Virus genome (UHGV): UHGV-0210093 | Source: a virus | DNA length: 54,052 nt | Strand: one strand, 5' to 3' | Shown: positions 5,881 through 25,828 of the stretch, piece after piece | How the letters are laid out: each line of letters begins with the position of its first letter | Numbering within the stretch: position 1 is the first letter of the stretch | Translations under genes and position numbers: made by a program | The notes under the pieces: model-generated | Seen by the model: only the letters and a program-made list of their open reading frames with translations | What the model was told of the DNA's origin: nothing | Database searches by the model: none

Positions 5881-6315
5881 ATGAGCAATAAATTAGCAAA
5901 ACCAATGGCAAACAAGATTGTAGTAGATGATGGTAGCAAGGTCTACACGATTGAGAACAAAAGAGGAAAGGTACTCGGCAAGTTCGAGTTCAGACCTACA
6001 GATACAAATATCGTGAAGAGATATGAGGAAGTGGTTGAATACTACAATTCATATCAGCTGCCAGAGAATCCAAGCGAAGCGGATATGAGAAAAGCTGAGG
6101 AAGATATTACAGGGAGAATCTCTTATCTTATCGGAGAAGATGCAAAAGAGACATTCTTCTCTATCCTCGGAGCATTCTCACCACTTGCAAATGGAGAACT
6201 GTACATGGAGAATGTTCTGTCCTCTATCGCAAAAGTGATTGAAAAGGAAATGAATATCCGCACAAAGAAGGTACAGAGTCGCATGAATAAGTATGTGGCT
6301 AAGTACCACAACTAA
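5881..6315 (+). CDS. tail assembly chaperone (gpG-like)
   Basis: GAAAGGA RBS before the ATG at 5881. Acidic ~144-aa protein immediately upstream of the tape measure gene; it overlaps the next ORF. Confidence 0.5.
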   Translation: MSNKLAKPMANKIVVDDGSKVYTIENKRGKVLGKFEFRPTDTNIVKRYEEVVEYYNSYQLPENPSEADMRKAEEDITGRISYLIGEDAKETFFSILGAFSPLANGELYMENVLSSIAKVIEKEMNIRTKKVQSRMNKYVAKYHN

Positions 6316-6316
6316 T

Positions 6317-6913: not shown

Positions 6914-6972
6914 CCGGATATCGAAAGAGATATTCGCTGACCGCAGATAATTAGCGGTGGAAAGGATTAGAA

Positions 6973-9900
6973 ATGGCACAAGCCGACGGCTATATCATAA
7001 TTGACACAGAGATTAACGCTGACGGCATGAAAGCCGGAAGTAAAGAAGTTGAAGCAGCTGTCAGAAGAATGGCGAATTCCGTTGATGATATTGGGAACAA
7101 AGCTAAGACAGCTCTCAACAAACAAGCGGATGCATTCGCTAAATTAAACAATGAATATGCTGCACAGGAGCAGAAAGTATCTGAACTGAAGAAAAAGATT
7201 GCTGAGTACGGTGAGCAGAAAGTACCAACAGATGAATACAGAGAGATACAAACACAGATTTCACAGGCTACTCAGAAACTGAATTCGCTGAAAGCTGCAC
7301 AGGATAAATTTCTTTCTACTGGTGGAAAGCAGAGCAGTTCATCTTTCAAGAGGATGCAGTATGACATAGAAGAGCTTGAGAATGAAATCAAATATGCAAA
7401 AGCAGAATTAGCTGACTTAGAAGCGTCAGGTGGAGCGTTTACGCTTGGCTCTAAGACACAAGAAGCAGCTGCCAGTATGCGCACATTGCAAGCAGAAGAG
7501 AGAAAACTTGCTGACATGAATAATCGTCTTCATACTTCTTACAATTCTGTAAAAGGAAGTATTGATGATTACAAACAGAAGTTGATGAGTGCGGCACCGG
7601 CACAGCAAAAAATGGCGAATGCAAGTGAGAAGGCTTCAAAGTCTATCACTAAAACTGGGAAAGCTGCAAACAGTGCGAGGTTCGGCATTGGAAGAATGCT
7701 TAAGATGTCCTTACTAATGAGCATAGCATTCAGAGCGTTTTCGGCTGCAATTAGTGCTATCAAGGATGGGTTCACAAACCTTGCACAGTACTCAAGTAGC
7801 ACGAACAACAGTATATCAATGTTGTGGGGAAGTCTTGAGACGCTTAAGAACAGCCTTGCGACAGCGTTTGCACCGATTCTTAGTGTAGTAGCACCAATTC
7901 TTAGCAAATTCATTGACATGCTTTCAACAGCTGCAAGTTATGTAAGTATGTTCTTCTCATTCTTGTCCGGAAAGAGTACATACACGAAAGCTATCGCAGT
8001 ACAGAAAGATTATGCCGGAAGCCTTAAGGATACGGCAAGCGGTGCGAAAGATGCAGCAGACGGAACAAAAGAAGCTGCGGAAGCTGCGGAAGAGTACTTA
8101 TCACCACTTGATGATATCAACAAAATGGATAAGCAGGACTCGGGAAGTGATTCTGGTGGATCCGGTGGTGGTGGAGGTGGTGCCGGTGGCGGTAGTGGTT
8201 CCGGACCATTGTTCGAAGAAGTACCGATTGACAATAAGTTTGCATCCTTGCTTGATTCCGTATTGGACAAGCTGAAACAGATCAGAGACATCTTTATGGA
8301 TGGTTTCTGGGATGGACTTGGAGATTACAAGCCAGTACTTGAAGAACTGAAGAAAGACCTTAAGTCTATCGGAGAACACATCAAAGATATCTTCACAGAT
8401 AAAAATGTTCAGGAAGCAGCTAAGAGATTCGCTATATTGTTCATTTATAACATGGGCAAAACAGTAGGCTCATTTGTTTCGATTGGGTTAACAATAGCAG
8501 CAAATGTTGTTGGAGGTATTGAAAGCTACTTAGAAGAGAATACAGACAGAATCAAGAAGTGGCTTGTGAGGATGTTCGATTTAGGCTCAGAGATTTCCAT
8601 AATTGTAGGAAATTTAAGTGCAACAATTGCAGAGATATTCCAACAGACATTCGGATCACAGACAGCACAGAACATTACTGGCAATATTATTGGCATATTT
8701 ACCACAGCGTTCGGAGAAATTATTCTACTTGCCACAAGCTTTGCAAAAGATGTAATGGATGCGATTGCAACACCTATCATCGAGAACAAAGATAAGATTA
8801 TTGAAGCTATCAATAACACGCTGAAACCAATAGAGGAGATTACTCAATCTATAGAAGACTTCGTACAGAAGTTAGCAGATAAGCTGACGGAACTGTATGA
8901 TGAGCATATAGGACCGTTTATCAATGATGTTGGAAGTGGCTTATCAGAAATAGGTGGAACACTTCTTGATACCTATAACCAGTATATCGCACCGATTCTT
9001 GATCAGTGGGCGCAGAAGTTCGATGAAGTCTTAAACGGACCAGTGGGCGATGCAATTGACCACATCATTGACGAAATTGGAAGGCTGATTGATGGACTTA
9101 ATTGGCTGTGGAATAACGTACTTATTCCTCTTATACAGTGGTTGATAGAGAACGTGATTCCAGTACTTGCACCTATAGTGGCATGGATTGGTGATACGCT
9201 TCTTTCCATTGTTGCCAGCGTAACTGGAATGGCAGATAGCGTTCTCAAACAGCTTGATGGAATCATCCAATTTTTAACAGGAGTTTTCACTGGGGATTGG
9301 GCGCAAGCATTGAGTGGAATCCTGTTATACGTTGAAGGATTTAAGCAGAACATTAATATTATCTTCAATTTCATCAAGAATCAAATACTTGATCCGCTGT
9401 CAAAATGGCTTGACGGAGTATTCAAGGTGGATTGGGTAAAAGACTTTGGTGTAATTGGAGATTACATGAATGCATGGCTTGCGAATATTCAGAACATTGT
9501 TGCAGCTGTGAAACAGGCATTTAGCGGAATCGTTGATTTTGTAAATGGTGTCTTATCAGGAGATTGGCAACAGGCATGGGATGGTATCAAGAATATCTTC
9601 GGTGGTGCTTGGAATGGCATGTTAGCAATCATCAAATCTCCAATTAACGGAATCATCGGATTGATGAACGGACTCCTTAGAGCTGCACAGATCATGCAGA
9701 ATGGCGTTGCTAATGCACTGAACAAAATGAACATATCAGTTCCATCATGGGTTACATCATTAACTGGAGTATCATCTATCGGATTCCATATATCAAAATG
9801 GAGTGCTCCACATATCCCTTACCTTGCACAGGGTGCTGTTATCCCACCGAACAAAGAGTTCATGGCGGTACTTGGTGACCAGAAAAGCGGTAACAACATT

Positions 9901-10071
9901 GAAGCACCTGAAAGCCTTATCCGTAAGATTGTAAGGGAAGAAACTGGTAACAGCTCACGCAAGATTGAAGTGCCGGTATATCTGAACCGTAGACAGATTG
10001 CGAAGGCCGTACTTGAAGAAGGAAAGAACATGAGAACACAGACGGGAAGAAATCCGTTTGAAATGGCTTAG
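6973..10071 (+). CDS. tail tape measure protein
   Basis: 1032 aa with a coiled-coil N-terminus, a Gly/Ser-rich linker (GGSGGGGGGAGGGSGSG), hydrophobic segments, and repeated W/G-rich C-terminal motifs. Position after the chaperones fits. Confidence 0.85.
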   Translation: MAQADGYIIIDTEINADGMKAGSKEVEAAVRRMANSVDDIGNKAKTALNKQADAFAKLNNEYAAQEQKVSELKKKIAEYGEQKVPTDEYREIQTQISQATQKLNSLKAAQDKFLSTGGKQSSSSFKRMQYDIEELENEIKYAKAELADLEASGGAFTLGSKTQEAAASMRTLQAEERKLADMNNRLHTSYNSVKGSIDDYKQKLMSAAPAQQKMANASEKASKSITKTGKAANSARFGIGRMLKMSLLMSIAFRAFSAAISAIKDGFTNLAQYSSSTNNSISMLWGSLETLKNSLATAFAPILSVVAPILSKFIDMLSTAASYVSMFFSFLSGKSTYTKAIAVQKDYAGSLKDTASGAKDAADGTKEAAEAAEEYLSPLDDINKMDKQDSGSDSGGSGGGGGGAGGGSGSGPLFEEVPIDNKFASLLDSVLDKLKQIRDIFMDGFWDGLGDYKPVLEELKKDLKSIGEHIKDIFTDKNVQEAAKRFAILFIYNMGKTVGSFVSIGLTIAANVVGGIESYLEENTDRIKKWLVRMFDLGSEISIIVGNLSATIAEIFQQTFGSQTAQNITGNIIGIFTTAFGEIILLATSFAKDVMDAIATPIIENKDKIIEAINNTLKPIEEITQSIEDFVQKLADKLTELYDEHIGPFINDVGSGLSEIGGTLLDTYNQYIAPILDQWAQKFDEVLNGPVGDAIDHIIDEIGRLIDGLNWLWNNVLIPLIQWLIENVIPVLAPIVAWIGDTLLSIVASVTGMADSVLKQLDGIIQFLTGVFTGDWAQALSGILLYVEGFKQNINIIFNFIKNQILDPLSKWLDGVFKVDWVKDFGVIGDYMNAWLANIQNIVAAVKQAFSGIVDFVNGVLSGDWQQAWDGIKNIFGGAWNGMLAIIKSPINGIIGLMNGLLRAAQIMQNGVANALNKMNISVPSWVTSLTGVSSIGFHISKWSAPHIPYLAQGAVIPPNKEFMAVLGDQKSGNNIEAPESLIRKIVREETGNSSRKIEVPVYLNRRQIAKAVLEEGKNMRTQTGRNPFEMA

Positions 10072-10523: not shown

Positions 10524-13500
10524 ATGAAGAATGTAAGCAACGAATTCAAAAACATCATAAAGTCAGGCGGTCCGTTCTATGCTTACGCATCGATTACACT
10601 GAAAAACGGTGAGAAACTATATCTTGATTCGGATAACGATTTCTTCATAAGCGGTAATGGATACGCAGAAGACGGAGGAGATGGATTCCCACTGGGATCC
10701 GCTCTCTCCAAGTCCGTTACGCTTGTCATTGATAACATCGATGAGAGATTTTCCAAGTATGATTTTTACTATGCACAGATTTCACTCTTCACTGAAGCTG
10801 ACATCGAAAGTAGAAGCTATGATGCATGGAGAGATGTGAAAGGTGAGGAAATTCTCGATGTCAATGGCAACACGATTATGCTGACGAAATCAAGAATCGA
10901 GAGATTGAACGAGGGTACATTTACAGTACTTGAGCCAACAGCGGTTGGAGATACGATAGAACTTGTAGGTTATGATTCAATGTACAAAGCAGATGCAGAC
11001 TTCACGTCTAAGCTATCTTATCCAACAACAGCTGGGCAGCTTCTAAGAGAAGCGTGTAGTACATGTAACATCATGCTTGGAAGTCCGAAGTTTAACAATG
11101 ACGATTTCGTGATTGAACAGGCTCCGGAAAAAGTGACTTGCCGAGAAGTAATCGGATATATAGCAATGCTTTCCGTTGGTAATGCTGTGATTCAGAACGG
11201 AACACTTGTTATTAAGAGTTACGACTTTTCTGCAATATCGAAGATTACAAATAGGGATGACTTAGTGGAAGATGCTGGCTATAGCATTTTGATGGACTAT
11301 CAGTCAGATCCGGACATTAGCACAGATCCTGTTGTAATCACTGGAATTGCGACCACAAAGAAAGTAGAAAACGAGAGTACAATCTTAATAAGAGGTACAG
11401 ATGATTATGCACTTGAAATCACGAATCCTCTTATTGAAGGACATGAAGATGATGCAATCAATCTGATTGGAGATGTATTGATCGGAGTTAAGCTGAGAGG
11501 TTTTAGTGGAGAATTCTTCCCTGATCCAACGATCGAATTCATGGATCTGGCTTGCGTGGTAGATAGGAAAGACAAAGTTTATCCAACATTTATCACATCC
11601 CATGAGTTCAGCTATCTCGGAAGCAGTTCGTTCTCTTGCGGAATCAAAGATCCGGAACGTCAAAAGAGTACTTATTACAGCGAAGCTAAAAAGGTATATG
11701 AAAAAGCTAATAAGGAAATCAAGCAGAATAAGACGGACTTTGAAGCAGCTGTCGAGAATCTGAATAAGACGCTTGAGAATGCATCTGGAATGTATTCGAC
11801 AGAATCACCACAGCCGGACGGAAGTATGATTACATACATCCATGATAAGCCGACAGTAGAAGAGTCCAAGAATGTAATCAAAGTTACATCTGAAGCCATT
11901 GGTATATCAAATGATGGCGGTAAGACATATCCTTACGGCTTATTCCTTACCGGTGATCTGATAACAAGAATCTTGTATGCTATCGGCATAAATGCTGATT
12001 ATATCAATTCTGGTTCTCTTACCGTAAAAGATAAGAATGGAAACATTACTTTCTACGCTGACACAGAGACAGGGCGAGTAACTATCAATGCAGAGTCCAT
12101 AAGCATCACAGGAAAGTCTGTAGAAGATATCTCAAACGGAATCGTAGATGATTTTGTCACAAATATCTATAAGAATGACATTGATGAGATTAAAGAGTCT
12201 GTCCGGAATAAGATAGAGACATGGTATCAAGATAGTGATCCGTCTGTAAACTGGAAAGACAAGTCCGAACATGAAGGTGACCTGTGGAAGGACACAAGAG
12301 ATAACAAAGAGTATATCTATCGTTCCGGCAAATGGGAAGAAATGAATGTGCCGGATGAAGTGTTTGACGAGATTGACAGCAAAGCTCAAATCTTCATCAA
12401 TGAGCCGACAACTCCTTATAAGTTGGGAGACTTGTGGTTTGAGTCTGAAACAAAAGAGTTGCTTACTTGTATCAAGAGCAGAGCAACAGGCTCATGCGTA
12501 AAGGCAGACTGGGAGAAACGTACCAAGTATACGGACGATTCCACAGTGAACACATTTATCACAAAGATTTACGAATCGGACATTGATGATATCCGGAATC
12601 AAATCGACCAAAAGATTGAAACTTGGTATCAGAGTACAGATCCATCCGTAAACTGGGGTGGAACTGTTGAAATGGCATGGTGCGATGTCAATGGCGAATC
12701 AATCCTTGACGTAAACGGAAATGAAATCATCTTGCTATACGAAGAGTCTAAGGCTGAACATGAAGGAGACTTGTGGAAAGACCTGTCTACGAACGATGAG
12801 TATATTTATCGTGGCGGTCAGTGGATGAAGATGCAAGTGCCGGACGAAGTCTTTGACGAGATTGATGGCAAGGCACAGATATTCATTAACACTCCTGTTC
12901 CGCCGTATCGTGTTGGTGACTTATGGTTTGATGCAGATACACAGGAGCTTCTCACTTGCGTGGAAAGCAGAGATAAAGGAAGCTGTGTAAAGTCCGACTG
13001 GCAGAAGAAAACCAAGTACACTGACGATAGCGGACTGAATACCTTCATTTCTGCGGTATACGATCCGAAGATTGCGGAATTACAGAGTCAGATTGATGGA
13101 CAGATTGAAACATGGTTCTATGACCACGAACCTAGCTTACAGAACGAACCGGCTGTGAATTGGACAACCAACGAGCAGAGAAAAGACCACGAAGGTGATC
13201 TCTTCTTCTGGAAGTCCACTGGATATTCCTACCGATTCTTACAGGACGGAGCGGTTTGGAAGTGGCAGATCGTACAGGATACAGATATTTCAAAAGCACT
13301 TGCAGCTGCGGAGAAAGCACAGGATACAGCAGATCATAAGCGTAGAGTCTTTGTAGTGACTCCACAGCCACCTTACGACATAGGTGACCTTTGGGTACAG
13401 GGTGATGATGGTGACATCATGCGTTGCTGTGTTGCAAGAAGTGAATCGGCTTCTTTCTCGGCATCAGACTGGGAAAAGGCATCAAAGTACACGGACGATA

Positions 13501-15962
13501 CAAGAGCCAATGAGGTACAGAAAGAGCTGGAAACAGTCAATAAGGACTTGCAGAATCAGATTGATGGCAAGATTGAGACATACAATCAATCTGCTGATCC
13601 GGCAGCTTCATGGACAACAGCTGAACTGAAAGCAAAGCATACTGGCGACTTATGGTACAACTCAAAAACCGAAGAAACAATGCGTTGGAACGGTTCAGCG
13701 TGGTCAAAGTTAAGTGATGCGGATGCGAAAGCTGCAAAGAACCTTGCTGTCACAAAGAAACGTGTATTCAGCGTAACTCCTTATCCACCTTATGATACAG
13801 ATGATTTATGGGTGCAAGGTACAAACGGTGACTTGATGCGATGCGTGACCTCATGTCAGAGCGGAGAGTATGTCGCATCTGATTGGGTCAAGGCTACCAA
13901 GTACACAGACGATTCCGCAATCAATAACTTTGTTAAGAATACTTATGCTGCCGACCTTGAGAATATCAAGAATCAGATTGATCAGAAGATAGAAACTTGG
14001 TTCCAACCTACTGACCCGTCACTTAATTGGACTGGAAAAGAAACACAGCCTCTTTGCGATATAAACGGGAATGACATCTTAGATGTTAGTGGAAAAAATA
14101 TCACAATCACTGTGGAAACCGAAAAAGCAACTCATGAGGGTGACTTGTGGAAGAATTCCAAAACTGGTGATGAATACATCTACAGAAGCGGAAATTGGGA
14201 AAAAATGCCAGTTCCAGACTCTGTATTCGATGAGATTGACGGTAAAGCGCAGATTTTCTCAACACAGCCAAAGCCACCGTATAGCGTGGATGATTTGTAT
14301 TTCACTGGAAATGATATCCTTGTCTGCCTAAAGGACAGAGAAACTGGTGAGTATGTAGCAAGTGATTGGCAGAAGAAAGATAATTATACAGACGATTCTA
14401 CAGTAACGGACTTCATCGAAAACATTTATGATCCGAAAATTGAAGATATCCAAAATCAGATTGATGGAAAGATTGATACGTACTATTGCGATTATGAGCC
14501 TGCGAATTCAAACCATCCAGCATCTGAGTGGACTACAGCTTACGAAAGACAGAAGCATGTTGGTGACCTCTTCTTTTGGAAGAACAAAGGTTTCACTTAC
14601 CGCTATATGAAAGTCGATACATCTTATCAGTGGGTGAGAGTGAAAGATGCAGACATCGTATCTGCGATGGAAACAGCATCAAAGGCTCAAGATACCGCAG
14701 ACGGTAAGAGAAGAAACTTTATTACAACTCCTGTGCCACCTTACGATGTTGGAGATTTGTGGACACAAGGAAACGACGGTGACTTGATGCGATGCCGAAC
14801 CGCAAGAACTAGTGGTAACTTTGTTTCTTCTGATTGGGTAAAGGCTACAAAGTATACTGATGATTCTGCGGTCGATAAGCTAAATAAATCTCTGACTTCC
14901 GAAGAAGTGTTTAACAGACTTACTGATAACGGGAAGAAACAAGGGATATATATGCAAGGCGATCAGTTGTATATCAACTTCTCTTATGGCAAGGGCGGTA
15001 CACTTACATTGGGAGGTGTAAACAATGAAAATGGCTCAATACAGATACTAGATGCCATAGGAGCGGAAGTTGGTAAATGGGATAAAGATGGACTGAACAT
15101 CCAAAAAGGCTCGATTTATGGAAGCACGATATATTTAGATAAAGAAAAAGCGTATGCGCTCATCGTTGGCCGCAACAATTCGAAAGAAATATTCACTATC
15201 GGAAGCATGGGGATGCATATTGATAATACTAATATGGGACTTCTCGCATCAGACAGTATGGTTGTTGACCTTATGGGCGGTTGGTTTCATGGTTTGAGAA
15301 TGAAAGCATCTAATAATGGAAGGGGATACGGTTCTTCAATTTCCCCGGAATGCTTCTCTATTGGATGGGCTGAGGATTTACAAGGATGGTCTGATGCAAT
15401 GTCAACAGTAAAATCGTACACATTTAGCATTAGCGAGAACTCAACAGGTTGCCTTTCAATTAGAATTAATGGAAGTAGTTATATTAATGATTATGTAGAT
15501 ATAAGCCCAAGAGAAATAAAAACAACTGGAACTAAAAACCGTGTTGTTCCAACAGAGAATTATTCGAACAGACTTCAATATTGCTACGAAACAGCTTCGC
15601 CAATGTTTGGAGACATCGGTGAAGGAATTACTGATGAGAACGGTGAATGTATCGTTGAAATCGGAGATATCTTCACGGAAACTGTAACAACACGCATTGA
15701 GTACCAGGTATTCTTGCAGAAAGAAGGGAAAGGAGATTTGTGGATTGAAAAGAAGGAAGAGAATTACTTCATTGTGCACGGAACTCCGAATCTGAAATTT
15801 GCATGGGAACTGAAAGCAAAACAGAAAGATTACGAATATGTAAATCTTGAGGAAGATGTTGACAGGGAAGAAAAATTACCTGAAAGCCCTGAGAACATAT
15901 TAAACGCGGAACTAGAAACCTTGATTAAGGAACAGGAGGAACTTTTAAATGAAACAGCTTAG
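10524..15962 (+). CDS. giant tail / receptor-binding-region protein: Tal-like (tail-tip) N-terminal part plus about 8 tandem ~120-aa repeats
   Basis: 1812 aa. The N-terminal ~370 aa resemble prophage tail endopeptidase-type proteins. The central part repeats a module with the pattern IETW..DPS.NW..HEGDLWK..YIYR.G.W..M.VPD.VFDEIDGKAQIF..P.PPY..GDLW..C...DW.K.TKYTDDS. Confidence 0.7.
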   Translation: MKNVSNEFKNIIKSGGPFYAYASITLKNGEKLYLDSDNDFFISGNGYAEDGGDGFPLGSALSKSVTLVIDNIDERFSKYDFYYAQISLFTEADIESRSYDAWRDVKGEEILDVNGNTIMLTKSRIERLNEGTFTVLEPTAVGDTIELVGYDSMYKADADFTSKLSYPTTAGQLLREACSTCNIMLGSPKFNNDDFVIEQAPEKVTCREVIGYIAMLSVGNAVIQNGTLVIKSYDFSAISKITNRDDLVEDAGYSILMDYQSDPDISTDPVVITGIATTKKVENESTILIRGTDDYALEITNPLIEGHEDDAINLIGDVLIGVKLRGFSGEFFPDPTIEFMDLACVVDRKDKVYPTFITSHEFSYLGSSSFSCGIKDPERQKSTYYSEAKKVYEKANKEIKQNKTDFEAAVENLNKTLENASGMYSTESPQPDGSMITYIHDKPTVEESKNVIKVTSEAIGISNDGGKTYPYGLFLTGDLITRILYAIGINADYINSGSLTVKDKNGNITFYADTETGRVTINAESISITGKSVEDISNGIVDDFVTNIYKNDIDEIKESVRNKIETWYQDSDPSVNWKDKSEHEGDLWKDTRDNKEYIYRSGKWEEMNVPDEVFDEIDSKAQIFINEPTTPYKLGDLWFESETKELLTCIKSRATGSCVKADWEKRTKYTDDSTVNTFITKIYESDIDDIRNQIDQKIETWYQSTDPSVNWGGTVEMAWCDVNGESILDVNGNEIILLYEESKAEHEGDLWKDLSTNDEYIYRGGQWMKMQVPDEVFDEIDGKAQIFINTPVPPYRVGDLWFDADTQELLTCVESRDKGSCVKSDWQKKTKYTDDSGLNTFISAVYDPKIAELQSQIDGQIETWFYDHEPSLQNEPAVNWTTNEQRKDHEGDLFFWKSTGYSYRFLQDGAVWKWQIVQDTDISKALAAAEKAQDTADHKRRVFVVTPQPPYDIGDLWVQGDDGDIMRCCVARSESASFSASDWEKASKYTDDTRANEVQKELETVNKDLQNQIDGKIETYNQSADPAASWTTAELKAKHTGDLWYNSKTEETMRWNGSAWSKLSDADAKAAKNLAVTKKRVFSVTPYPPYDTDDLWVQGTNGDLMRCVTSCQSGEYVASDWVKATKYTDDSAINNFVKNTYAADLENIKNQIDQKIETWFQPTDPSLNWTGKETQPLCDINGNDILDVSGKNITITVETEKATHEGDLWKNSKTGDEYIYRSGNWEKMPVPDSVFDEIDGKAQIFSTQPKPPYSVDDLYFTGNDILVCLKDRETGEYVASDWQKKDNYTDDSTVTDFIENIYDPKIEDIQNQIDGKIDTYYCDYEPANSNHPASEWTTAYERQKHVGDLFFWKNKGFTYRYMKVDTSYQWVRVKDADIVSAMETASKAQDTADGKRRNFITTPVPPYDVGDLWTQGNDGDLMRCRTARTSGNFVSSDWVKATKYTDDSAVDKLNKSLTSEEVFNRLTDNGKKQGIYMQGDQLYINFSYGKGGTLTLGGVNNENGSIQILDAIGAEVGKWDKDGLNIQKGSIYGSTIYLDKEKAYALIVGRNNSKEIFTIGSMGMHIDNTNMGLLASDSMVVDLMGGWFHGLRMKASNNGRGYGSSISPECFSIGWAEDLQGWSDAMSTVKSYTFSISENSTGCLSIRINGSSYINDYVDISPREIKTTGTKNRVVPTENYSNRLQYCYETASPMFGDIGEGITDENGECIVEIGDIFTETVTTRIEYQVFLQKEGKGDLWIEKKEENYFIVHGTPNLKFAWELKAKQKDYEYVNLEEDVDREEKLPESPENILNAELETLIKEQEELLNETA

Positions 15963-16206: not shown

Positions 16207-16701
16207 ATGGAATGGACAAAGTACACAACTAAAGAAGCACTGAAAGACAATGATGAGTTAATGATTCTCGACAAGGATGCAAATGCAAACAAGCGTACAC
16301 TGATGGACAAGGTATGGGATTATGTTGTCGATAAGATGACTACGGCAGTTATCGCAAAGTTAGGAACAACTAACAAGACTTTGATTGGGGCAGTTAATGA
16401 ATTAAATAGCAACCGCTTTAAAATTAGAAGCTACATTATAGATAATACAACTGCATTTAAAATTACAAAAGTCGTAAAATGGAAAAATTCAAATGACCAT
16501 ATGGTAGCTTTACTACTTGCCGATGTTAATCGTTATGCCGACATATACATAATTGGAAGGTTATCAGGAGTAAATATACTGTCAAAAACATCTAATGTTG
16601 ATACACCACAAATTGATAGTTCTTCAAGTACATTAACAGTTACACTTGGAGCCTGGAGTTCAGCACTTCTGATTTGTTTTGAATCCGTAACGATAAGTTA
16701 A
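16207..16701 (+). CDS. expressed copy of the shufflon-like variable tail/adhesin gene: constant N-terminus (~65 aa) + in-frame repeat encoding LNSN + current variable cassette V0
   Basis: Strong AAAGGAGA RBS. The gene reads through repeat L0 (16402-16413) in the same frame (xNSN) that every silent cassette uses. It stops on a TAA created inside repeat L1. Confidence 0.6.
   Translation: MEWTKYTTKEALKDNDELMILDKDANANKRTLMDKVWDYVVDKMTTAVIAKLGTTNKTLIGAVNELNSNRFKIRSYIIDNTTAFKITKVVKWKNSNDHMVALLLADVNRYADIYIIGRLSGVNILSKTSNVDTPQIDSSSSTLTVTLGAWSSALLICFESVTIS
16402..16413 (+). repeat. shufflon repeat L0 (TTAAATAGCAAC), inside the expressed gene
   Basis: Matches the 12-bp family consensus ATAAAATAGCAA; translated as LNSN. 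Confidence 0.6.
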
Positions 16702-16709
16702 ATAGCAAT
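16698..16709 (+). repeat. shufflon repeat L1 (TTAAATAGCAAT)
   Basis: Supplies the TAA stop of the expressed gene. The next cassette begins in frame through it. Confidence 0.6.
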
Positions 16710-16942
16710 CTTGGAAAGAAGAATACCATTGACGTTGGTGAAGTGTATTTGAATGAAAACGGTTATTGTCTCCTTACGGATAGATTTCCAGAACTATCAA
16801 ATGCGAATCTTATAACCATTGCTTACTACGAGACAATTGAACCAACGGCAGCCATATCAGTATATTGCTCATCTTATAATGCCTATATATTTGGCTCAAA
16901 AAACACGCATATAACTGGGTTAAAAATAATTTATTGGAAATG

Positions 16943-16954
16943 ATAAAATAGCAA
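16943..16954 (+). repeat. shufflon repeat L2 (ATAAAATAGCAA)
   Basis: Exact consensus. Identical to the reverse complement of R2 and R7. Confidence 0.6.
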
Positions 16955-17240
16955 TAAACAAAATGCTGCTATGTTAGTTGAAAACACTTCTAATCTTTGT
17001 GAATATATGCTTTCAAACTGTAGAAGAACTGGCATATGTTTTTATGCGATACCAAGCACAGTAAAAGTAGAAAATGGTTCTCCTGACGGAAATGGTGGTT
17101 TTGGAATTGCATGCAAAAGTACATCTGAAGATTATGGTATGCTTATTGTTTTTTCATATGGTAAAGCTGTGTATATGAAAATTAAATCAATAACATGGGA
17201 TAATTGGAAGAAAGTAAAATTTATCGAATGATTATTCTAT

Positions 17241-17252
17241 ATAAAATAGTTT
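17241..17252 (+). repeat. degenerate terminal repeat L3 (ATAAAATAGTTT)
   Basis: 9 of 12 positions match; ends the plus-strand cassette run. Confidence 0.35.
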
Positions 17253-17429
17253 CTAATATGTTTCGTCTTTTGTATTTTTCAAACATACACTCCCTATTTC
17301 ATCACCATCACACATTTTCCGAAAACATCATTTTTGCATATCTGAAAACACAGACTTCTCATAAAAAATGGTATAGCAAACAAGCCATCGAGAAATGGCT
17401 TTAAAAAATCAATATTGAATCAAGTCAGC

Positions 17430-18440
17430 TTACGCTATATATCGTCTGAAAGATGCTTTTACATTAGATTCACTTACAGTGACGTACATCATGGTTGTAT
17501 CCGGCTTTTGGTGTCCGGCATAAGCCTGAATCTCTTGTAGCGGTATTCCTCTACTTCCAGCATCCGTGAGTAGGGTTCTTCGGAACTTATGCGGATGCGC
17601 ATGAATATCTGTTTTTTTACCAAGTTTCGACAGCATTGACCATATAGCTTCCTTTCCCATCCGGTTGTGTGGCTTTCGGTTCGATACAAACAACGCCGGG
17701 TTCATATCATCCCTTGACATAAGGTACTTCTTGAGATGATATGCGCATTCATCCGTCAGATACACTTTCCTCTCTTTCTTTCCCTTTTCTCCGTAAATGA
17801 TTACTTCCTTGTTTCCCCAATCAATATCACTGCGGTTGAGTGCTACAACTTCACCGATACGTGCTGCTGTGGAGTACAGGAACTCCATAATTGCCACATC
17901 TCTCTGACTCTTAGCATTGCAACGTAGATGCTCCCTCTCTGCGGAGGTAAACGGCTTTTTGATGCGCTGTGGCACTTTCATGTGCTTGATGCGTCTCATT
18001 GGATTTTTGCTTATGAATCCCTCGTCAGAGAGCCATCCAAAGAATGATGAAAAGTATCTTCTAAGTGTGTCCATGTACGAGATAGACACTTTCCTTGTCT
18101 CTTGATACATGGCAAGGTAGTAGCGGATATCGTTTGTGGTTATGTCCTCAAATCTCTTGTTGAGATAGTTGACTAGCTTGGTTACACAGTCCACATAGCG
18201 GTCAATCGTACCTTGTGAGCAGTTCTCCAAGCGTTTACTTGCAATGAACAATTTGAGAATCTTATCCCAGTGAGATTGACTTGTTACCAATGAGGTACAT
18301 TCCTCTTGAAGTTTGACTCCGTGGAACGAGATATACAACACATTCTCCAATTTGTGCATCTGTTCCTCGGTCAGTTCCTCTTGCATCATGTTTACAACAT
18401 TTTTGATTATCATGTTAATGTCTTTTTCCATAAAAAACAC
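17430..18440 (-). CDS. tyrosine recombinase (XerD/Rci-like), candidate shufflon invertase
   Basis: 336 aa with catalytic-looking residues: ARIGE (Arg), HPHKFRRT (HxxR), GHQKPDTTMMYV (His and Tyr). It sits between the oppositely oriented repeat arrays. Confidence 0.8.
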   Translation of the reverse strand: MFFMEKDINMIIKNVVNMMQEELTEEQMHKLENVLYISFHGVKLQEECTSLVTSQSHWDKILKLFIASKRLENCSQGTIDRYVDCVTKLVNYLNKRFEDITTNDIRYYLAMYQETRKVSISYMDTLRRYFSSFFGWLSDEGFISKNPMRRIKHMKVPQRIKKPFTSAEREHLRCNAKSQRDVAIMEFLYSTAARIGEVVALNRSDIDWGNKEVIIYGEKGKKERKVYLTDECAYHLKKYLMSRDDMNPALFVSNRKPHNRMGKEAIWSMLSKLGKKTDIHAHPHKFRRTLLTDAGSRGIPLQEIQAYAGHQKPDTTMMYVTVSESNVKASFRRYIA

Positions 18441-18536
18441 CCCTTTCTAAGCCAATTATGACTCAAAAAGAGGTGAAATTAAATGCTTTATTTCGGTTCA
18501 TGAAATAGGGAGTGTATATGGTTAAAAATCACGCTT

Positions 18537-18548
18537 TTGTTATTTTAT
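18537..18548 (-). repeat. degenerate repeat R-1 (TTGTTATTTTAT)
   Basis: One mismatch to consensus; next to the recombinase promoter region. Confidence 0.35.
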
Positions 18549-18809
18549 GATACGGTTGCAATCCAAGAAATGTTTGGTTTTGCACCTGATGTGGTACAAG
18601 CGTTTGAAAGCTTTATTGTAAAGCCATTTTTTGTTACAGAAGCGTAATCTACAAACGCAGTCAAATCACCATATGTAGTAATGCTTGAGCCACTTTTCAA
18701 AGTACACACGACTGTCGGTATGGTATTGAATGGCTTTTTAAAAACGACATCCACTGCTTGCGTACTGTTTGCTGCAATTCCTACAGCTCCAGTTGTACCA
18801 GATTGTGTC

Positions 18810-18821
18810 TTGCTATTTAAT
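18810..18821 (-). repeat. shufflon repeat R0 (TTGCTATTTAAT)
   Basis: 12-bp family member in inverted orientation relative to the L repeats. Confidence 0.55.
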
Positions 18822-19145
18822 GACTATTGTAGTTGTCTAGGCAATCCACCGATTTTAAGCACTGTTAATTTTACATAACAACTTGATTCACTTGATGGAA
18901 CATCTACGCTATATGTTCCGTTGCCATTGGCAACCGAAAATGACAGCAGCTTGTTTGTTGATGTACTCCATAATTCGTGTCTTGTATCGACATTATCACT
19001 CACATTTGCAAACGTAGTTTTTTGTCCAATTTTCACTGGAGCATGAATTATACAATATGGTTCGTAACTTATAATACTCCCATTACTGTTAATATATTTA
19101 CTGTTTTCAATTTTAAGTGGTATTGCGAATTTCAAAACCAAACTC

Positions 19146-19157
19146 TTGCTATTTTAT
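19146..19157 (-). repeat. shufflon repeat R1 (TTGCTATTTTAT)
   Basis: Exact consensus. Confidence 0.6.
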
Positions 19158-19440
19158 TAGAAACGCATTTATATCGTGTACATCTTTTTGCTGTATTGTA
19201 ACATCGCATGTTAGTACTTTCTCAGACACAATATATTTGAAATTCGATGCGTTACTAGCATTAGCAGAAATTAAATTTGCGGAATACGTACTTCCATATC
19301 CAATTAAAACACATGCATAAACAGAACTTGATACTGCAAATGTCAAACAAATAATACCGAATTCTGTATTATCGATAGAAAATTGTGCAGATAATTTATT
19401 GTTTTCAATTGTTATATTGACTGGTATCTGCTTAAATTTA

Positions 19441-19452
19441 TTGCTATTTTAT
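19441..19452 (-). repeat. shufflon repeat R2 (TTGCTATTTTAT)
   Basis: Exact consensus. Confidence 0.6.
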
Positions 19453-19764
19453 ATAAAAATAATCATGCCAGTAGGCTTGACGTTGGCAATTGATTTCGTT
19501 GTTATTGTTACAATTAATTGTTTTCTTTCCCAAGAAAATGAAAACATATTATCTGAAAAAGTCTTATTTAACGAGAATGCAATATTCTTCTCGGATTTAT
19601 AAGCATGTCCAATGGCTGTTATGCAGTAATCATCTTGTATATGACCGCAAGCCATTATAACAATATAGTGTCTATCTGATTCGATTTTTGATAAATCTAT
19701 TTTTGTTTCACATTCACCATTCATTATGGCATCTATGTAATATCTGAAAATCGCCTTGTTTTGA

Positions 19765-19776
19765 TTGCTATTTAAT
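19765..19776 (-). repeat. shufflon repeat R3 (TTGCTATTTAAT)
   Basis: Its reverse complement is identical to L1 (TTAAATAGCAATC). Confidence 0.6.
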
Positions 19777-20017
19777 CTTTAGCGTTATAATTTTGAAAGT
19801 AAAAGCCCCTGTTGGACTGTTGTTTACAAAGCATAAAGACCAATTATTTGTTCCTTCTGTACCACTCACACCTCGTGAGATAGTGTATATCCATCCATTT
19901 CTATCTATTGATTGGATTGAAATAATCATGTATTCATCTGCATTCACACCTAAATCATACGTATCTTTTTCAGATTCGGCAGTGATAACTTTGTTAACAG
20001 ATTCGATTATAGGAATA

Positions 20018-20029
20018 TTGCTATTTTAT
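20018..20029 (-). repeat. shufflon repeat R4 (TTGCTATTTTAT)
   Basis: Exact consensus. Confidence 0.6.
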
Positions 20030-20314
20030 AACTCGGTAACACTACCATCATTAGTTATGAGAATGAACGATGACCATGCACGCATAGGCATACTTATCGT
20101 ATTACCACTTTTTGATGGTTGAGGAGAATCTGCATTTCCAATACTTATTTGTTTGATTCCAGAACTAGCACCTACGGCATATATGTTTGTATATCTATTT
20201 TGATCTACGATAAGTATTCCAGCAAAGTGACCACTAAATGTTAACCGTACAGTTTTTTCTTCACTATCAACAAAACCAGAATAATATCGCAGACCATTTG
20301 ATTGTAGTATCGTG

Positions 20315-20327
20315 TTGCTATTTTTAT
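20315..20327 (-). repeat. shufflon repeat R5 (TTGCTATTTTTAT, one extra T)
   Basis: Consensus with a 1-nt insertion. Confidence 0.5.
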
Positions 20328-20645
20328 GAAAACATTTACCTTAAAACATACGTCAAAAAAATGCGTAATTTGCCTTTAACTGTATGTTTTCCGAACACTT
20401 TTATATTTCCATGCGTGTCTACAACGAGCTGAACAAAAGCTTTCGGATCATAAATATACCCAATGGTATATATATCTGATGCTGGTTTGTATCTTTCCGT
20501 AATTGTACATAATATCATATCTTCTTTAATATCAATAATATTTGTAACTATATTAACTGTCATAACACCGTAGTTAGCAATAAAATTTACGTTGTTTATA
20601 TTAGTATTCTCAGAGAAGAATTCGCCAACAGTATTTTTTATTGTC

Positions 20646-20657
20646 TTGCTATTTTAT
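20646..20657 (-). repeat. shufflon repeat R6 (TTGCTATTTTAT)
   Basis: Exact consensus. Confidence 0.6.
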
Positions 20658-20897
20658 TGTCAATACCAACACCGAATTTGTAAACCTTGTATTTCTGTAT
20701 TAGGAGACCCGAAAACATAAGCACCACCGTTTTCACCACGATATATATTTATAGCTGAAATTGGTGTTATTAATAAATAATAAGAGATTTCTACTATTTT
20801 TGTATAGATCGGATATTTTTCATTATCATTGATGCGATAATATCCCGATTCATCTAGACTGATAGTGCCTAAATCAATAACAACATATTGTAATTTA

Positions 20898-20909
20898 TTG
20901 CTATTTTAT
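20898..20909 (-). repeat. shufflon repeat R7 (TTGCTATTTTAT)
   Basis: Exact consensus. Confidence 0.6.
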
Positions 20910-21216
20910 AGAAAAGGCTGGCTTGTTTATAGAATATGATATTAATGCAGTACCAGTAACCCACGAACCGATTCTTACTGAAATTACAGTGTTGTTAACT
21001 GATGGTGTTACTTCTTCACCATAAATTGTGCTTATTTTTATTTCTGTAATGTTTTTTCCGTCCTCTGTGTACACACTAATATAAATCATTCGTTTTTTGT
21101 CCATTAAAAGAGCTTGTACAGAGTTGGATCTATCGCCTAAATTAATTTCAATGGTTGTGCGATTAGATGTATTATAATTGGTTGAATAAGAATTTACATT
21201 TCCGTTTAATAACTTA

Positions 21217-21228
21217 TTGCTATTTTAC
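21217..21228 (-). repeat. shufflon repeat R8 (TTGCTATTTTAC)
   Basis: One mismatch to consensus. Confidence 0.55.
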
Positions 21229-21486
21229 TGAAGAGCTGTCCAAGAACACCACTTGCCAGCACCGTCAGTTGTTCGAAACCACACAGAACATTTTTTGCTA
21301 TTCGATACTCGTCTTTCGAAAAATACGCATAATCTACTAGTTTTTCCATCACTTGCCATAATGCAAAAACCACCAGTACCTCCTGGAGTGTCTTTTGCAT
21401 TTACGCCTACATAGGAAAAACCGTAAGGAGTATCGTTTATGGACGTCATCACTATTGGCAAATTTTTATATTCGCTCATTGCACTA

Positions 21487-21498
21487 TTGCTATTTTAT
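21487..21498 (-). repeat. shufflon repeat R9 (TTGCTATTTTAT)
   Basis: Exact consensus. Confidence 0.6.
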
Positions 21499-21750
21499 TT
21501 CCAATCATTCCACACTTCATCCGTTGAATTCCATATTCTAGTTTTTACAACCAAAGTGTATAAATACTGAATCGCCACTTGATACTTAATGTCATCCGAA
21601 AGTGAACCAATACAGAAAATAAACCATATTGAATCGTCGTTTTTTGGTTTATGCAAAGCTGTACGAAACGCTATAGCAGATTCTCCAACAGGGAGATCAT
21701 TGCAATCTTTATAAATGCCTGAAGAATAAATCTGTTTTGAGCATATTTTA

Positions 21751-21762
21751 TTGCTATTTTAT
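21751..21762 (-). repeat. shufflon repeat R10 (TTGCTATTTTAT)
   Basis: Exact consensus. Confidence 0.6.
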
Positions 21763-21997
21763 GGTTTTCCACCCGGTAGATGAAACGTATTGAGCAAATG
21801 CCACTGTATGTTCAGCATTGGCTATTCCTATAAAATTGGCACTTCCGTTATTAACCATGACAATTCCCCATGCCCAGCCACCGAATAATCCGCCTATAGT
21901 TCCCCAAACAGGAAGAAACTCGCATTGGTATTTATTATTCTCAGTGAAAAAATCGTTGATATTATCATCTAAGCGTTTTGCTTTACAGAGCATCTTC

Positions 21998-22009
21998 TTG
22001 CTATTTTAT
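21998..22009 (-). repeat. shufflon repeat R11 (TTGCTATTTTAT)
   Basis: Exact consensus. Confidence 0.6.
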
Positions 22010-22291
22010 TCCTTAATTTCTTTAATCGTTCCTTTCGCTATTGAACCACCCAGTATGCAAGCGTAATGCGTGTATTTAGATTGGAATGTAATTCGCATTG
22101 TAAAATCATTTATTTCAATTTTGACTTGACCGACCGTGGTGTTTGTCGTTTGTGATACGGGTATGTTATATAGTTGTAAGTCTTGATTGATTGAGAGTAT
22201 AATAACTCCATAAAAAGTGGCTTTTGACTTCACCGTTATTTCTATACCTTTTACATCAATTCCACCAATTACTTTTATACTACCAAAAGTT

Positions 22292-22303
22292 TTGCTATTT
22301 CAT
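22292..22303 (-). repeat. shufflon repeat R12 (TTGCTATTTCAT)
   Basis: One mismatch; last repeat before the lysis genes. Confidence 0.5.
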
Positions 22304-22430: not shown

Positions 22431-22739
22431 ATGGAATATGTAGGACGAGAAGAACATACAGAATTTGCCAAACGTATCGAGGACGAGCAGCATAGACAGA
22501 ATAGACGGATTGAGCTGTTAGAGGAATCTGTAAAACAGAACACAGCACTTACGGTATCTGTTGAGAAGCTTGCGAATAATATGGAAAGTATGGCAAACGA
22601 ACAGGCGAAACAAGGAGAGAGACTAGAAGCCTTAGAGAGCAGAGATGGAGAAATGTGGAGAACAGTGGTCAAATATGTTCTCACAGCGGCTCTCGGACTT
22701 GTGATTGGATTGGTAGCAACGCAGATTGGATTAGGATAA
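22431..22739 (+). CDS. XhlA-like lysis-associated membrane protein
   Basis: AAGGAGA RBS. Coiled-coil N-terminus and C-terminal transmembrane helix, immediately upstream of the holin. Confidence 0.45.
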   Translation: MEYVGREEHTEFAKRIEDEQHRQNRRIELLEESVKQNTALTVSVEKLANNMESMANEQAKQGERLEALESRDGEMWRTVVKYVLTAALGLVIGLVATQIGLG

Positions 22740-22750
22740 GGAGAAAGAAC

Positions 22751-23044
22751 ATGGAACAGATTATCAATTATGTAAAGCCGGAACTCATCGTAGTGGCTAT
22801 TGTACTGTACTTTATCGGTATGGCTATCAAACAGAGTGAGACTATCGCAGACAAGTATATTCCTAGCATCTTAGGAATTGCTGGAATCGTGATCTGCGGT
22901 ATCTACGTGATTGCAACTTGTACTCTTGGAACTGGACAGGATATCGCAATGGCAATGTTTACCGCAATCGTACAAGGAATTTTAGTGGCTGGATTAAGTA
23001 ACTATGTCAACCAGTTAATCAAACAGAGTGGAAAGGAAGAGTAA
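22751..23044 (+). CDS. holin
   Basis: GGAGAAAG RBS. 97 aa with three predicted transmembrane segments, directly upstream of the endolysin. Confidence 0.6.
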   Translation: MEQIINYVKPELIVVAIVLYFIGMAIKQSETIADKYIPSILGIAGIVICGIYVIATCTLGTGQDIAMAMFTAIVQGILVAGLSNYVNQLIKQSGKEE

Positions 23045-23046
23045 TT

Positions 23047-23223
23047 ATGACAGAGCAGACAGTAAAAGAAATTATTAAGAGTTTCGCTTACGGGTTATCC
23101 GCAAAGGAAATCTCAGACAACGAAGGAACGTCGTTGGAAACAATGCAGAAATTTGCAGAGGAACACGCAGCGGAGATCGAGCAGAAGAAAGCAGAGCTGA
23201 AAGAAGGTGGCTGGTATGAGTAA
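23047..23223 (+). CDS. small hypothetical protein (58 aa) in the lysis cassette
   Basis: ATG-to-TAA ORF between holin and endolysin; it overlaps the endolysin start. Confidence 0.3.
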   Translation: MTEQTVKEIIKSFAYGLSAKEISDNEGTSLETMQKFAEEHAAEIEQKKAELKEGGWYE

Positions 23224-24286
23224 ACTTATTATTGATGTCAGCTATCATAACGGGGTCATTAACTGGGAAAGAGTCAAAGCGTCAGGTTGTGCCGGTGCAA
23301 TCCTCCGCTGTGGATATGGAGATGATATCGCATCACAGGATGATAAACAGTGGATTCGTAACCTTGCTGAGTGCGAAAGACTTGGAATTCCGGTGGGAGT
23401 CTATCTGTACAGCTATGCGACTTGTGACAGACAGGCGCAGAGCGAACTTGACCATATCTTGAGATTAATCAAAGGTCATACATTCCAGTTGCCTATCTTC
23501 CTTGATGTGGAAGAACCAGGCACACAGAACTATGCTCCTAGATGTTGTGAAATCGTCTGTGAAGGACTAAAAGCGAATGGATATACTCCGGGAATCTACG
23601 CTTCATTGAGTTGGTTCAACAACTACCTTGGCAGTGTTCGTGGTAAATACATCGAATGGATGGCAAGATACAAGAATCTTCCAGAAGATACATACAATGG
23701 TCAGTATGCTATTTGGCAGTATTCTTCTGATGGACAGGTAGATGGAGTCAGTGGAAGAGTAGATGTAAACCATTGCTATATGGAATTCGGTGGAAGTGTT
23801 CAGCCTGTTACACCTTCTGTTAAGCCGGCACCGGCTACAAAGAAAGATTTAGGACAGGTCGATATTACATATCAGGCTTATACAACTAAGTGGTGGGATC
23901 CAGTAACCAACAAAGCGGATTGGGCCGGTAAAGGTGATGATGTTCCGATTAAGTGGCTTGCTATCAAGGTAAGCAGAGGAAGCATCCGCTGTAGAGTATA
24001 CACAAGAAAGAATGGTTGGCTTCCGTACCTTACATTCGGCAACAGCTATGATCTGAATGACAAGGTAAATGGAATCCTCGGAGATGGTTCAGAGATTCTT
24101 GCTATTGAGTTGTATTACATCACACCGGATGGATATAAGTACAAGATGGTTCACTACAGAGTTTCTGTACAGAACAACAAGAACTTCTATGCAGATCAGG
24201 TTGACACACTGAAAGCAAGTGGCATGGACGGATACGCAGGAGACAAATACAGATTCATTGACAAGTTCCAGGCTTGGATTGAGTAA
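23216..24286 (+). CDS. endolysin: GH25 muramidase with a C-terminal cell-wall-binding region
   Basis: N-terminal DVSxHNGxINW and later DVE/ Y.S.SW motifs are typical of GH25 lysozymes; about 150 aa of extra C-terminal domain. The ATG at 23216 has an AAGGTGG RBS. Confidence 0.8.
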   Translation: MSKLIIDVSYHNGVINWERVKASGCAGAILRCGYGDDIASQDDKQWIRNLAECERLGIPVGVYLYSYATCDRQAQSELDHILRLIKGHTFQLPIFLDVEEPGTQNYAPRCCEIVCEGLKANGYTPGIYASLSWFNNYLGSVRGKYIEWMARYKNLPEDTYNGQYAIWQYSSDGQVDGVSGRVDVNHCYMEFGGSVQPVTPSVKPAPATKKDLGQVDITYQAYTTKWWDPVTNKADWAGKGDDVPIKWLAIKVSRGSIRCRVYTRKNGWLPYLTFGNSYDLNDKVNGILGDGSEILAIELYYITPDGYKYKMVHYRVSVQNNKNFYADQVDTLKASGMDGYAGDKYRFIDKFQAWIE

Positions 24287-25660: not shown

Positions 25661-25828
25661 ATAATCATCTCCTTTTAAGTATAAAAATAACAGCCATACA
25701 ATAGAACAACAGTTCTGATTGATTGACTGCTCCGAAGATGATACAATATTACTGTTCATATAATTCGCACTGCTCTTCGGAGTTGTGTATCAACCGTTCC
25801 TGCGCCAACAGGAGCGGTTTTATTTTAT

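Follow-up and report, generated by a model that had tools for sequence, protein, structure and literature searches.

The window analysed here is the whole 54,052-nucleotide (nt) stretch of the virus genome UHGV-0210093, and the element under study is a 12-bp repeat that crosses a small gene and recurs in two arrays, one on either side of a recombinase gene. The small gene occupies 16207-16701 (+ strand), codes for a protein of 164 amino acids and reads GAA TTA AAT AGC AAC, or E-L-N-S-N, across a repeat copy at 16401-16412 (ATTAAATAGCAA). An earlier note on this DNA had recognized this copy but had placed it at 16402-16413, which is the codon-aligned TTA AAT AGC AAC. The 12-mer has the form (A/T)T(A/T/G)AAATAGCAA, and its consensus ATAAAATAGCAA has 27 matches with two or fewer mismatches in the whole window against 11.2 expected, with at least 27 matches found in 0 of 100 shuffles. 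Between 16.4 and 22.3 kb there are 18 such matches, as the earlier note had counted, although those at 21295-21306 and 18537-18548 are not working sites. The exact 9-mer core AAATAGCAA occurs 17 times versus 1.0 expected, and 16 of the 17 copies cluster at 16.4-22.3 kb where they flank the recombinase gene on both sides. Three of the clustered cores are on the + strand (16404, 16700 and 16946) and 13 are on the - strand (18810 to 22292). The locus thus has what a shufflon is expected to have, namely at least three short asymmetric repeats present in both orientations (3 + and 13 - copies within 6 kb). The lone core copy away from this cluster, at 27278-27286 (+), lies in the lysogeny region, and chance predicts one.

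The gene in the middle of the two arrays (17430..18440, - strand, 336 amino acids with ATG at 18431 as its likely start) codes for an Xer-like tyrosine recombinase that is a putative shufflon invertase. This protein matches Pfam Phage_integrase (1.7e-30) and Phage_int_SAM_4 (1.2e-13), contains no arm-binding domain and has an XerA-like family as its best NCBIfam match, with the Xer-type matches all being below cut-offs. A look-up of its exact sequence found nothing on record. It is of XerD-like build and is distinct from the phage integrase, which is a separate 400-amino-acid protein encoded at 24557-25759. A predicted site-specific recombinase is therefore encoded at the locus, and the same gene is also central to the arrays in 51 related loci.

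Related loci are denoted below by numbers with the prefix L, and IMG/VR yielded 72 of them in a scan with the recombinase and 19 in a scan with the 26-nt constant-region junction. Three of these loci (L001, L002 and L003) are 99.8-100% identical to the window. The 7.2-kb L003 contains twelve window cassettes in changed order and orientation, while L002 corresponds to the window after one inversion, 16412<->18821, between the expression-site copy and the copy at 18810-18821. Wherever a junction in L001, L002 or L003 is bordered on either side by window cassettes, a left flank from one window site (24/24 nt) is followed by the right flank of another site (24/24 nt), the single exception being a right flank that matches at 23/24 nt, so the breakpoints of these rearranged isoforms are located at the repeats. 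Furthermore, position 3 of the 12-mer, which is occupied by A, T or G, goes along with the left flank and the first variable base after CAA with the right flank, which places the exchange inside AAATAGCAA. The moving unit is composed of a right half-site, a cassette body and the left portion of the site that follows, and each cassette thus carries its own stop. A mechanism of the type used by diversity-generating retroelements was also considered, but the rearrangements are exact cassette exchanges rather than point diversification.

In other contigs the constant 5' part of the gene is joined to four other window cassettes. These are the 16947 cassette (16943..17231) in L001/L074 at 99.6% identity, the 18810 cassette (18545..18821) in L002 (100%) and L010, the 22292 cassette (22006..22303) in L089 (100%) and L004 (89%), and the 21217 cassette (20901..21228) in L073. 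The constant part can therefore be joined in frame to alternative 3' segments, with five different window cassettes observed at this position in nature. The cassette now expressed in the window is silent in L003, where it is located behind a TAA-type left half. The isolate genome of Mediterraneibacter faecis, GCA_020538205.1 (L103), has the same prophage module with ten cassettes, and its expressed cassette is of the 20898 type, being 96% identical to window positions 20660..20909. Finally, in the 51 related loci 237 of 240 sites point to the recombinase gene, an invariant that is expected if only inversions between the arrays occur. With the sites oriented towards a central recombinase, each inversion would also carry the recombinase gene along.

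These natural variants bear on the view that the repeats are a mere coding motif of tandem paralogous small genes, or that the rearrangements come from general homologous recombination or assembly error. Some of the cassettes are indeed paralogous, with 22-35% identity, and the contigs are metagenomic. However, immediately upstream of the silent cassettes there is an in-frame stop, and they contain no conserved start. Exchange occurs at 9 bp of identity within unrelated flanks, which is too short for RecA or for assembler k-mers, the tyrosine recombinase gene is always central to the arrays, and the isolate genome has yet another arrangement. We consequently regard this explanation as highly improbable. 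As a separate observation, the IMG/VR contigs L073, L074, L080, L082, L084, L089 and L091 terminate no more than a few dozen bases away from the constant-region junction, as would be expected if population heterogeneity at the shufflon disrupted short-read assemblies.

We analyzed the coding properties of the repeat with a frame table in which translation was started from each core in the AAT-AGC-AA frame and also run in all three frames. The AAT-AGC-AA frame, which reads N-S-N/K, is open for 80-109 codons from its own core to the next in 16 of 16 cassettes, and, as the earlier note had proposed, it is thus the one in which the expressed gene and all cassettes are read. When the repeat is numbered A1-T2-A3-A4-A5-A6-T7-A8-G9-C10-A11-A12, the TAA at bases 2-4 shares the frame of AAT AGC AA (bases 5-12), such that silent copies read stop-N-S-N/K, and the TAG at bases 7-9 is in the +2 frame of the 12-mer. 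The +1 frame (AAA ATA GCA, K-I-A) is open in the consensus and is closed only by TTAAAT variants. The distances between consecutive cores are 296 and 246 on the + strand and 294, 247, 264, 270, 319, 252, 331, 297, 253, 324, 295, 336 and 273 on the - strand. Nine of these 15 spacings are multiples of 3, five leave a remainder of 1, and one leaves a remainder of 2.

This table is not compatible with the frame model of the earlier note, which had assumed that the N-S-N frame is free of stops with TAA residing in a separate frame, that both other frames contain stops, and that spacings are never multiples of 3 so that an upstream cassette always arrives in a stop frame. What the model does capture is that each cassette starts in the N-S-N frame and terminates at the following repeat or shortly ahead of it. 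The TAA, however, lies in the N-S-N frame itself, the AAA ATA GCA frame is open, and the majority of the window's spacings are multiples of 3, with all three spacing classes also being common in the pooled set described below. The exact frame table thus already refutes the model as it was worded, and we give it virtually no credence.

The stops themselves are distributed as follows. Among the 15 window cassettes, 11 stop within the next 12-mer, with six using an in-frame TAA just before AAT, four using the TAG of the core, and one, the expressed gene alone, using the T-TAA-AT that is provided by the TTAAAT variant at 16697. The remaining four stop 6-16 nt upstream of the core, and no window cassette reads through the next repeat. 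The expectation that an upstream cassette ends at the next repeat therefore stands in regard to the lack of read-through but not in regard to the exact position of the stop. The earlier note had raised the possibility that TTAAAT copies mark junctions of preferred read-through, but in the three silent ones of the window the N-S-N frame is shut by in-frame stops located 9-21 nt upstream, and the TTAAAT copy at 16697 supplies the TAA of the expressed gene. Likewise, the notion that a single site serves as crossover, terminator and start survives in that the repeat is a crossover site, an in-frame start and usually a stop, although not by the frame mechanism that had been put forward.

Pooling of 135 non-identical cassettes from the relatives gives the same picture. 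Within this set 89 cassettes stop inside the next 12-mer (32 with TAA/TGA at -3, 36 with TAG at +2 and 21 with TAA at -2) and 41 stop 6-35 nt upstream of the site. The remaining five comprise four that pass chance internal copies located inside a cassette and one that stops early, so there is no read-through among real cassettes. Since all three spacing classes are common in the pooled set, the frame in which a cassette arrives is not constrained; the constraint is the presence of a stop in whichever frame arrives. For cassettes that arrive in frame +1, and thus face the open K-I-A frame of the consensus, the stop is either located upstream or is a TAA formed by an xTA left half. Those that do reach the site in frame +1 have the xTA left half in 17 of 17 cases versus 5 of 59 in the other frames (Fisher p of about 7e-13, a value that is descriptive only as the cassettes are not phylogenetically independent).

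A different interpretation is that stops in the repeat are incidental, with the 12-mer being set by recombinase binding and by N-S-N coding, and with the stops arising from AT-rich packing without selection on the left half for termination. This would account for the cassettes that stop upstream of the site (4 of 15 in the window and 46 of 135 in the pooled set), for the conservation of bases 1-2 (A, T) even where no stop is needed, and for the fact that frame +2 arrivals still mostly have TAA (21 of 31). It is harder to reconcile with base 3, which is A, T or G and is C in only 1 of 84 sites, meaning that the in-frame triplet is nearly always a stop or Leu, with the xTA bias of the frame +1 arrivals noted above (subject to the same lack of phylogenetic independence), and with the absence of read-through in real cassettes. 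We therefore view incidental stops as a possible but rather unlikely explanation.

The expression-site copy stands out in that it reads TTA AAT AG(C/T) AA in all relatives, with GAA or CAA as the codon before it, or ACA in one lineage. The TTA (Leu) codon is present at this site because the frame there must stay open. TTAAATAG(C/T)AA is retained in every expression junction recovered, and GAATTAAATAGTAA is retained even where the constant region of homologues is only 40-46% identical at the protein level. This retention points to selection that acts on the DNA itself. Outside of the site there is no conservation past about 14 bp among the related loci compared.

The individual segments of the locus are as follows. 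The constant N-terminal coding part of the putative receptor-binding protein gene (16207..16404, + strand) has 66 codons ending in ...GAVNEL and is followed, through the expression-site copy ATTAAATAGCAA (16401..16412, +) with reading (GA)A TTA AAT AGC AA(C), by the cassette that is now expressed (16405..16701, +). This cassette has 98 codons plus TAA and a spacing of 296 (remainder 2), and its stop, at -2, is the T-TAA-AT of the next site. Two silent cassettes follow on the + strand, one at 16697..16943 (site GTTAAATAGCAA, 80 codons, TGA) that has a different position in L003 and one at 16943..17231 (site ATAAAATAGCAA, 94 codons, TGA). The - strand array starts next to the recombinase with a cassette at 18545..18821 (site ATTAAATAGCAA, 90 codons, TAA) that probably contains an H-type lectin domain, as assigned by sequence pattern. 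Next are cassettes at 18824..19157 (109 codons ending in a TAG that precedes the next core by 9 nt; this cassette is relocated in L001 and L003), 19149..19452 (99 codons, stopping at the TAG within the next core), 19449..19776 (site ATTAAATAGCAA, 107 codons, stopping at the in-frame TAA of the next site), 19768..20029 (85 codons, TAG within the next core) and 20026..20326 (site TAAAAATAGCAA, 98 codons, in-frame TAA), the last of which is 35% identical to the expressed cassette. Further out are cassettes at 20336..20657 (105 codons, TAA 16 nt before the next core), 20660..20909 (81 codons, TGA 9 nt before the next core), 20901..21228 (site GTAAAATAGCAA, 107 codons, TAG in the next core), 21225..21498 (89 codons, in-frame TAA), 21495..21762 (87 codons, in-frame TAA) and 21754..22009 (83 codons, TAG in the next core). 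The outermost silent cassette (22006..22303) has 97 codons ending in TAA, and its site ATGAAATAGCAA includes an in-frame TGA.

Two kinds of additional repeat copies accompany these cassettes. The cassette at 21225..21498, also called the 21487 cassette, holds an internal in-frame AATAGCAA at 21295-21302 that is part of the 21295-21306 (-) copy. This copy is an N-S-K in frame within V-S-N-S-K-K, with ATCG rather than ATAA to its left, and no exchange at it was seen, both flanks being intact in the window and in L003. The other non-working copy, AATAACAA at 18537-18548, is degenerate and terminal. The two degenerate terminal copies, ATAAAATAGTTT at 17241..17252 (+, read from sequence) and ATAAAATAACAA at 18537..18548 (-), are located at the inner end of each array, adjoining the recombinase module. 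The latter gives a TAA to the last - strand cassette and is followed by 18 codons, and its two flanks stay joined in L001 and L002. No exchange was seen in the relatives at either degenerate copy (17241-17252 and 18537-18548).

Taken together, we consider it very likely that the repeat serves for crossover in a multiple-inversion shufflon through which a temperate M. faecis phage varies the C-terminal half, the receptor-binding one, of a small tail protein. In this proposal the Xer-like tyrosine recombinase, located between two arrays that point at it, would exchange strands within the 9-bp AAATAGCAA between any + copy and any - copy. As the core is read as AAT AGC AA(N) in the head and in every cassette, an inversion at the expression-site copy would fuse the 66-codon head in frame to a new tail of 80-109 codons, such that 16 proteins should be possible from this locus, and the variants would be expected to differ in the host receptor that they recognize. 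Arrivals in frame (frame 0) would stop at the TAA/TGA that immediately precedes AAT, those in frame +2 would stop at the core's own TAG, and frame +1 arrivals would need either a TTA-type left half (T-TAA-AT) or an earlier stop of their own. The same in-frame TAA would close the silent cassettes from upstream, and only the expression site would combine TTA (Leu) with an open upstream frame.

Several points weigh against this shufflon interpretation. The grounds for a receptor-binding role are the position of the gene and a single lectin domain, and the AlphaFold model is poor (pLDDT, the predicted local distance difference test, of 55). Among related cassettes (80-98.5% nt identity) the differences are 29% synonymous versus 22-25% in shifted frames, and such a weak synonymous excess means that purifying selection is weak or that there is diversifying selection on the cassettes. 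About a third of the cassettes stop before the site, so the in-site stop is common but not obligatory. That the recombinase is the catalyst, and that inversion is the only event, we infer. The cassette count varies among relatives (10-16), so gain or loss also occurs. Moreover, the isoforms come from different samples and not from reads within one population, and metagenome contigs that extend over a shufflon may be path chimeras, although a 12-bp repeat is shorter than any assembler k-mer, so that a junction is assembled only if reads support it.

The recombinase module has additional features. It is flanked by an 18-bp perfect inverted repeat with its left arm at 17285..17302 (+, ATACACTCCCTATTTCAT) and its right arm at 18500..18517 (+, ATGAAATAGGGAGTGTAT), with the right arm sharing ATGAAATAG, the left part of the site, with the cassette site at 22292. 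In L003, position 17302 is joined to 18517 and the recombinase module is flipped relative to its flanks (99.7-100% identity), an arrangement that is not producible by cassette-site inversions. In other lineages an inverted repeat is located at the same distances from the gene, with one arm about 58-76 nt ahead of the start codon and the other 122-131 nt past the stop, and its arms change together across the 99%, 93% and 76% recombinase lineages. Two hairpins are contained inside the module that is bounded by this inverted repeat. One (18438-18475, -) consists of 17 pairs with a T-run behind them, has its end at the start codon of the recombinase and includes the ribosome-binding site, and the other (17382-17401, -) is terminator-like and follows the recombinase stop. 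A promoter scan did no better than with shuffled sequence. Tentatively, and with considerable doubt, these features could mean that the recombinase module is a separately invertible cassette with its own co-evolving inverted repeat that acts as a self-limiting on/off switch on top of a 16-way lottery of receptor proteins. We speculate that inversion of the module could turn shuffling on and off, as the extra inverted repeat would allow the phage to set anew how the recombinase gene is oriented with respect to transcription from outside.

The core itself exists in an AGC and an AGT variant, both of which code for Ser, and it is uniform within each locus except for three loci that each have one off-type copy. 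Comparison of L013-L047 with the window and L001-L012 revealed that a recombinase 99-100% identical to that of the window goes with AGC while the 93% and 76% lineages go with AGT. The AGC to AGT change is synonymous and keeps both TAA and TAG. The core variant thus tracks the recombinase lineage, and the sequences suggest that site and recombinase co-vary. More distant loci were also considered. The frequent 10-mers in L049-L072 (recombinase about 35% identical) were rejected as sites as they are tandem repeats or promoter-like or terminator-like motifs, and a relative in the Clostridium scindens phage phiCs5676-1 was rejected as a shufflon as it is located among replication genes and has no cassettes. 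Another, distant relative, L106 (MT836842.1), retains at 6040-7765 the constant gene, including GAATTAAATAGTAA, next to a recombinase gene (32% identity), and no further site copies were found in its 12.4-kb contig. MT836842.1 appears to be a fixed or decayed shufflon.

With respect to gene context, the 164-amino-acid gene is positioned between a gene for an 1812-amino-acid tail protein (10524-15962, +) and the holin (22655-23044) and GH25 lysin (23207-24286) genes. A 1032-amino-acid open reading frame at 6973-10071 has the position of a tape-measure gene and no Pfam match, and a terminase is also present. The neighbouring genes are those of a temperate tailed phage. The 1812-amino-acid tail protein contains several long internal repeats in which ...KYTDDS...IETWYQ..DPS.NW...HEGDLW...PPY..GDLW... 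recurs about six or seven times. Source names and the prophage in the isolate genome L103 point to Mediterraneibacter faecis as the host, and no match to the locus was returned when cultured and INPHARED phages were searched by megablast.

The 164-amino-acid protein itself gave no match in a PDB sequence search or in Pfam, PHROG and NCBIfam scans. An alignment of 23 full-length homologues revealed a head that is nearly invariant up to N-E-L-N-S and hypervariable thereafter, and AlphaFold2 with these homologues returned a helical head and a beta-rich tail in the poorly scoring model already mentioned. Several homologues carry the H-type lectin domain PF09458, and one of the 16 window cassettes matches Pfam H_lectin at 4.6e-10. 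This match probably corresponds to the 18810 cassette (18545..18821), which was assigned from the sequence pattern as the tool did not name the matching member. The other window cassettes are 7-35% identical to the expressed one, the 16 forming 14 clusters at 30% identity, and across the related loci the distinct cassette peptides number at least 181 and form about 75 clusters.

Systems of this kind have been described before, and the closest is the Rin shufflon, the likeness being one of description and domain build. Rin is found in prophages of Bifidobacterium breve and Bifidobacterium longum (Mavrich et al., 2018; PMC6109161), where there is an XerD-like tyrosine invertase and an 11-bp rix site inside a receptor-binding-protein gene, and where the five cassettes have 95-100 codons each. 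A Rin-type shufflon with H-type lectin cassettes has also been reported in Eggerthella lenta prophages (PMC8778435), a domain that recurs among the cassettes here. As in Rin, the phage encodes an XerD-like tyrosine recombinase without an arm-binding domain that is separate from its integrase, the constant N-terminal part of a receptor-binding-protein gene (a putative one here) holds a short asymmetric repeat (11 bp in Rin and 12 bp here), and promoterless C-terminal cassettes of about 95-100 codons are each preceded by the repeat at which inversions occur. There are also several differences. The site is (A/T)TAAAATAG(C/T)AA here versus TTCCCTAACCC for rix, the host is a low-GC Lachnospiraceae species versus an actinobacterium, there are 16 cassettes versus 5, and the constant part has 66 residues versus 168. 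In addition, the recombinase gene described for Rin is at one end, whereas here it is in the middle of two convergent arrays, would be carried by every inversion and has its own inverted repeat. Among the matches listed of 170 tblastn hits in the phage collection there is no Bifidobacterium prophage record.

The tail-fibre inversion systems Gin, Cin and Min and the R64 Rci shufflon are the classical systems. The R64/IncI shufflon (Rci, sfx, PilV) resembles the locus described here in using tyrosine-recombinase multiple inversion to join a constant N-terminus to alternative C-termini and in having short asymmetric sites that are conserved only in part; R64 Rci is known to invert without deletion. 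It differs in that its target is a conjugative pilus adhesin, in its seven 19-bp sfx sites and four segments, and in the location of rci outside of the invertible segments. The 12-mer here is of unrelated sequence to the 19-bp sfx, and the gene involved is a phage structural-module gene and not PilV. In Min (p15B), Gin (Mu), Cin (P1) and Pin, inversion likewise switches the C-terminal part of a phage tail fibre and thus host range, with Min being multi-segment. Unlike the present locus, those systems use serine invertases, 26-bp crossover sites and a Fis-dependent enhancer, while the sole recombinase of this locus belongs to Pfam Phage_integrase and is of the tyrosine type. The Hin/hix flagellar switch of Salmonella has its recombinase gene inside the segment that it inverts, a feature it has in common with this locus, but it involves a serine invertase, a single segment and a promoter switch rather than a coding-sequence shufflon. 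A more recent case is the tail-fibre shufflon of a BV01-like Phocaeicola vulgatus phage with three cassettes and six isoforms (PMC13596623, 2026 preprint). It is also a multi-cassette system of a gut phage beside a recombinase, with directional 10-bp motifs and inversions that shift the stop and the C-terminus, but its motif is TGGGAGAACT with 14-18-bp extensions and its host belongs to the Bacteroidota. Our literature search for a description of this Lachnospiraceae shufflon family found none.

Shufflons are a form of phage bet-hedging on host receptors. To our knowledge, known phage shufflons provide 2-6 alternatives, and the system here, with up to 16 alternatives per genome in a prophage family of a common human-gut Lachnospiraceae species, is unusually large. 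Its 12-bp site is subject to three constraints at once, serving as recombinase target, as L/stop-N-S-N codons and as terminator of the preceding cassette. If the module switch were true, its combination with frame-matched left half-sites would give the shufflon an architecture without a described counterpart in Rin, R64 or Min. The synonymous AGC/AGT switch that tracks recombinase lineage is a natural handle on site specificity. A heterogeneous shufflon would also explain the breakage of metagenome assemblies of these phages at this gene, and the finding bears on host-range prediction and on phage engineering in Bacillota.

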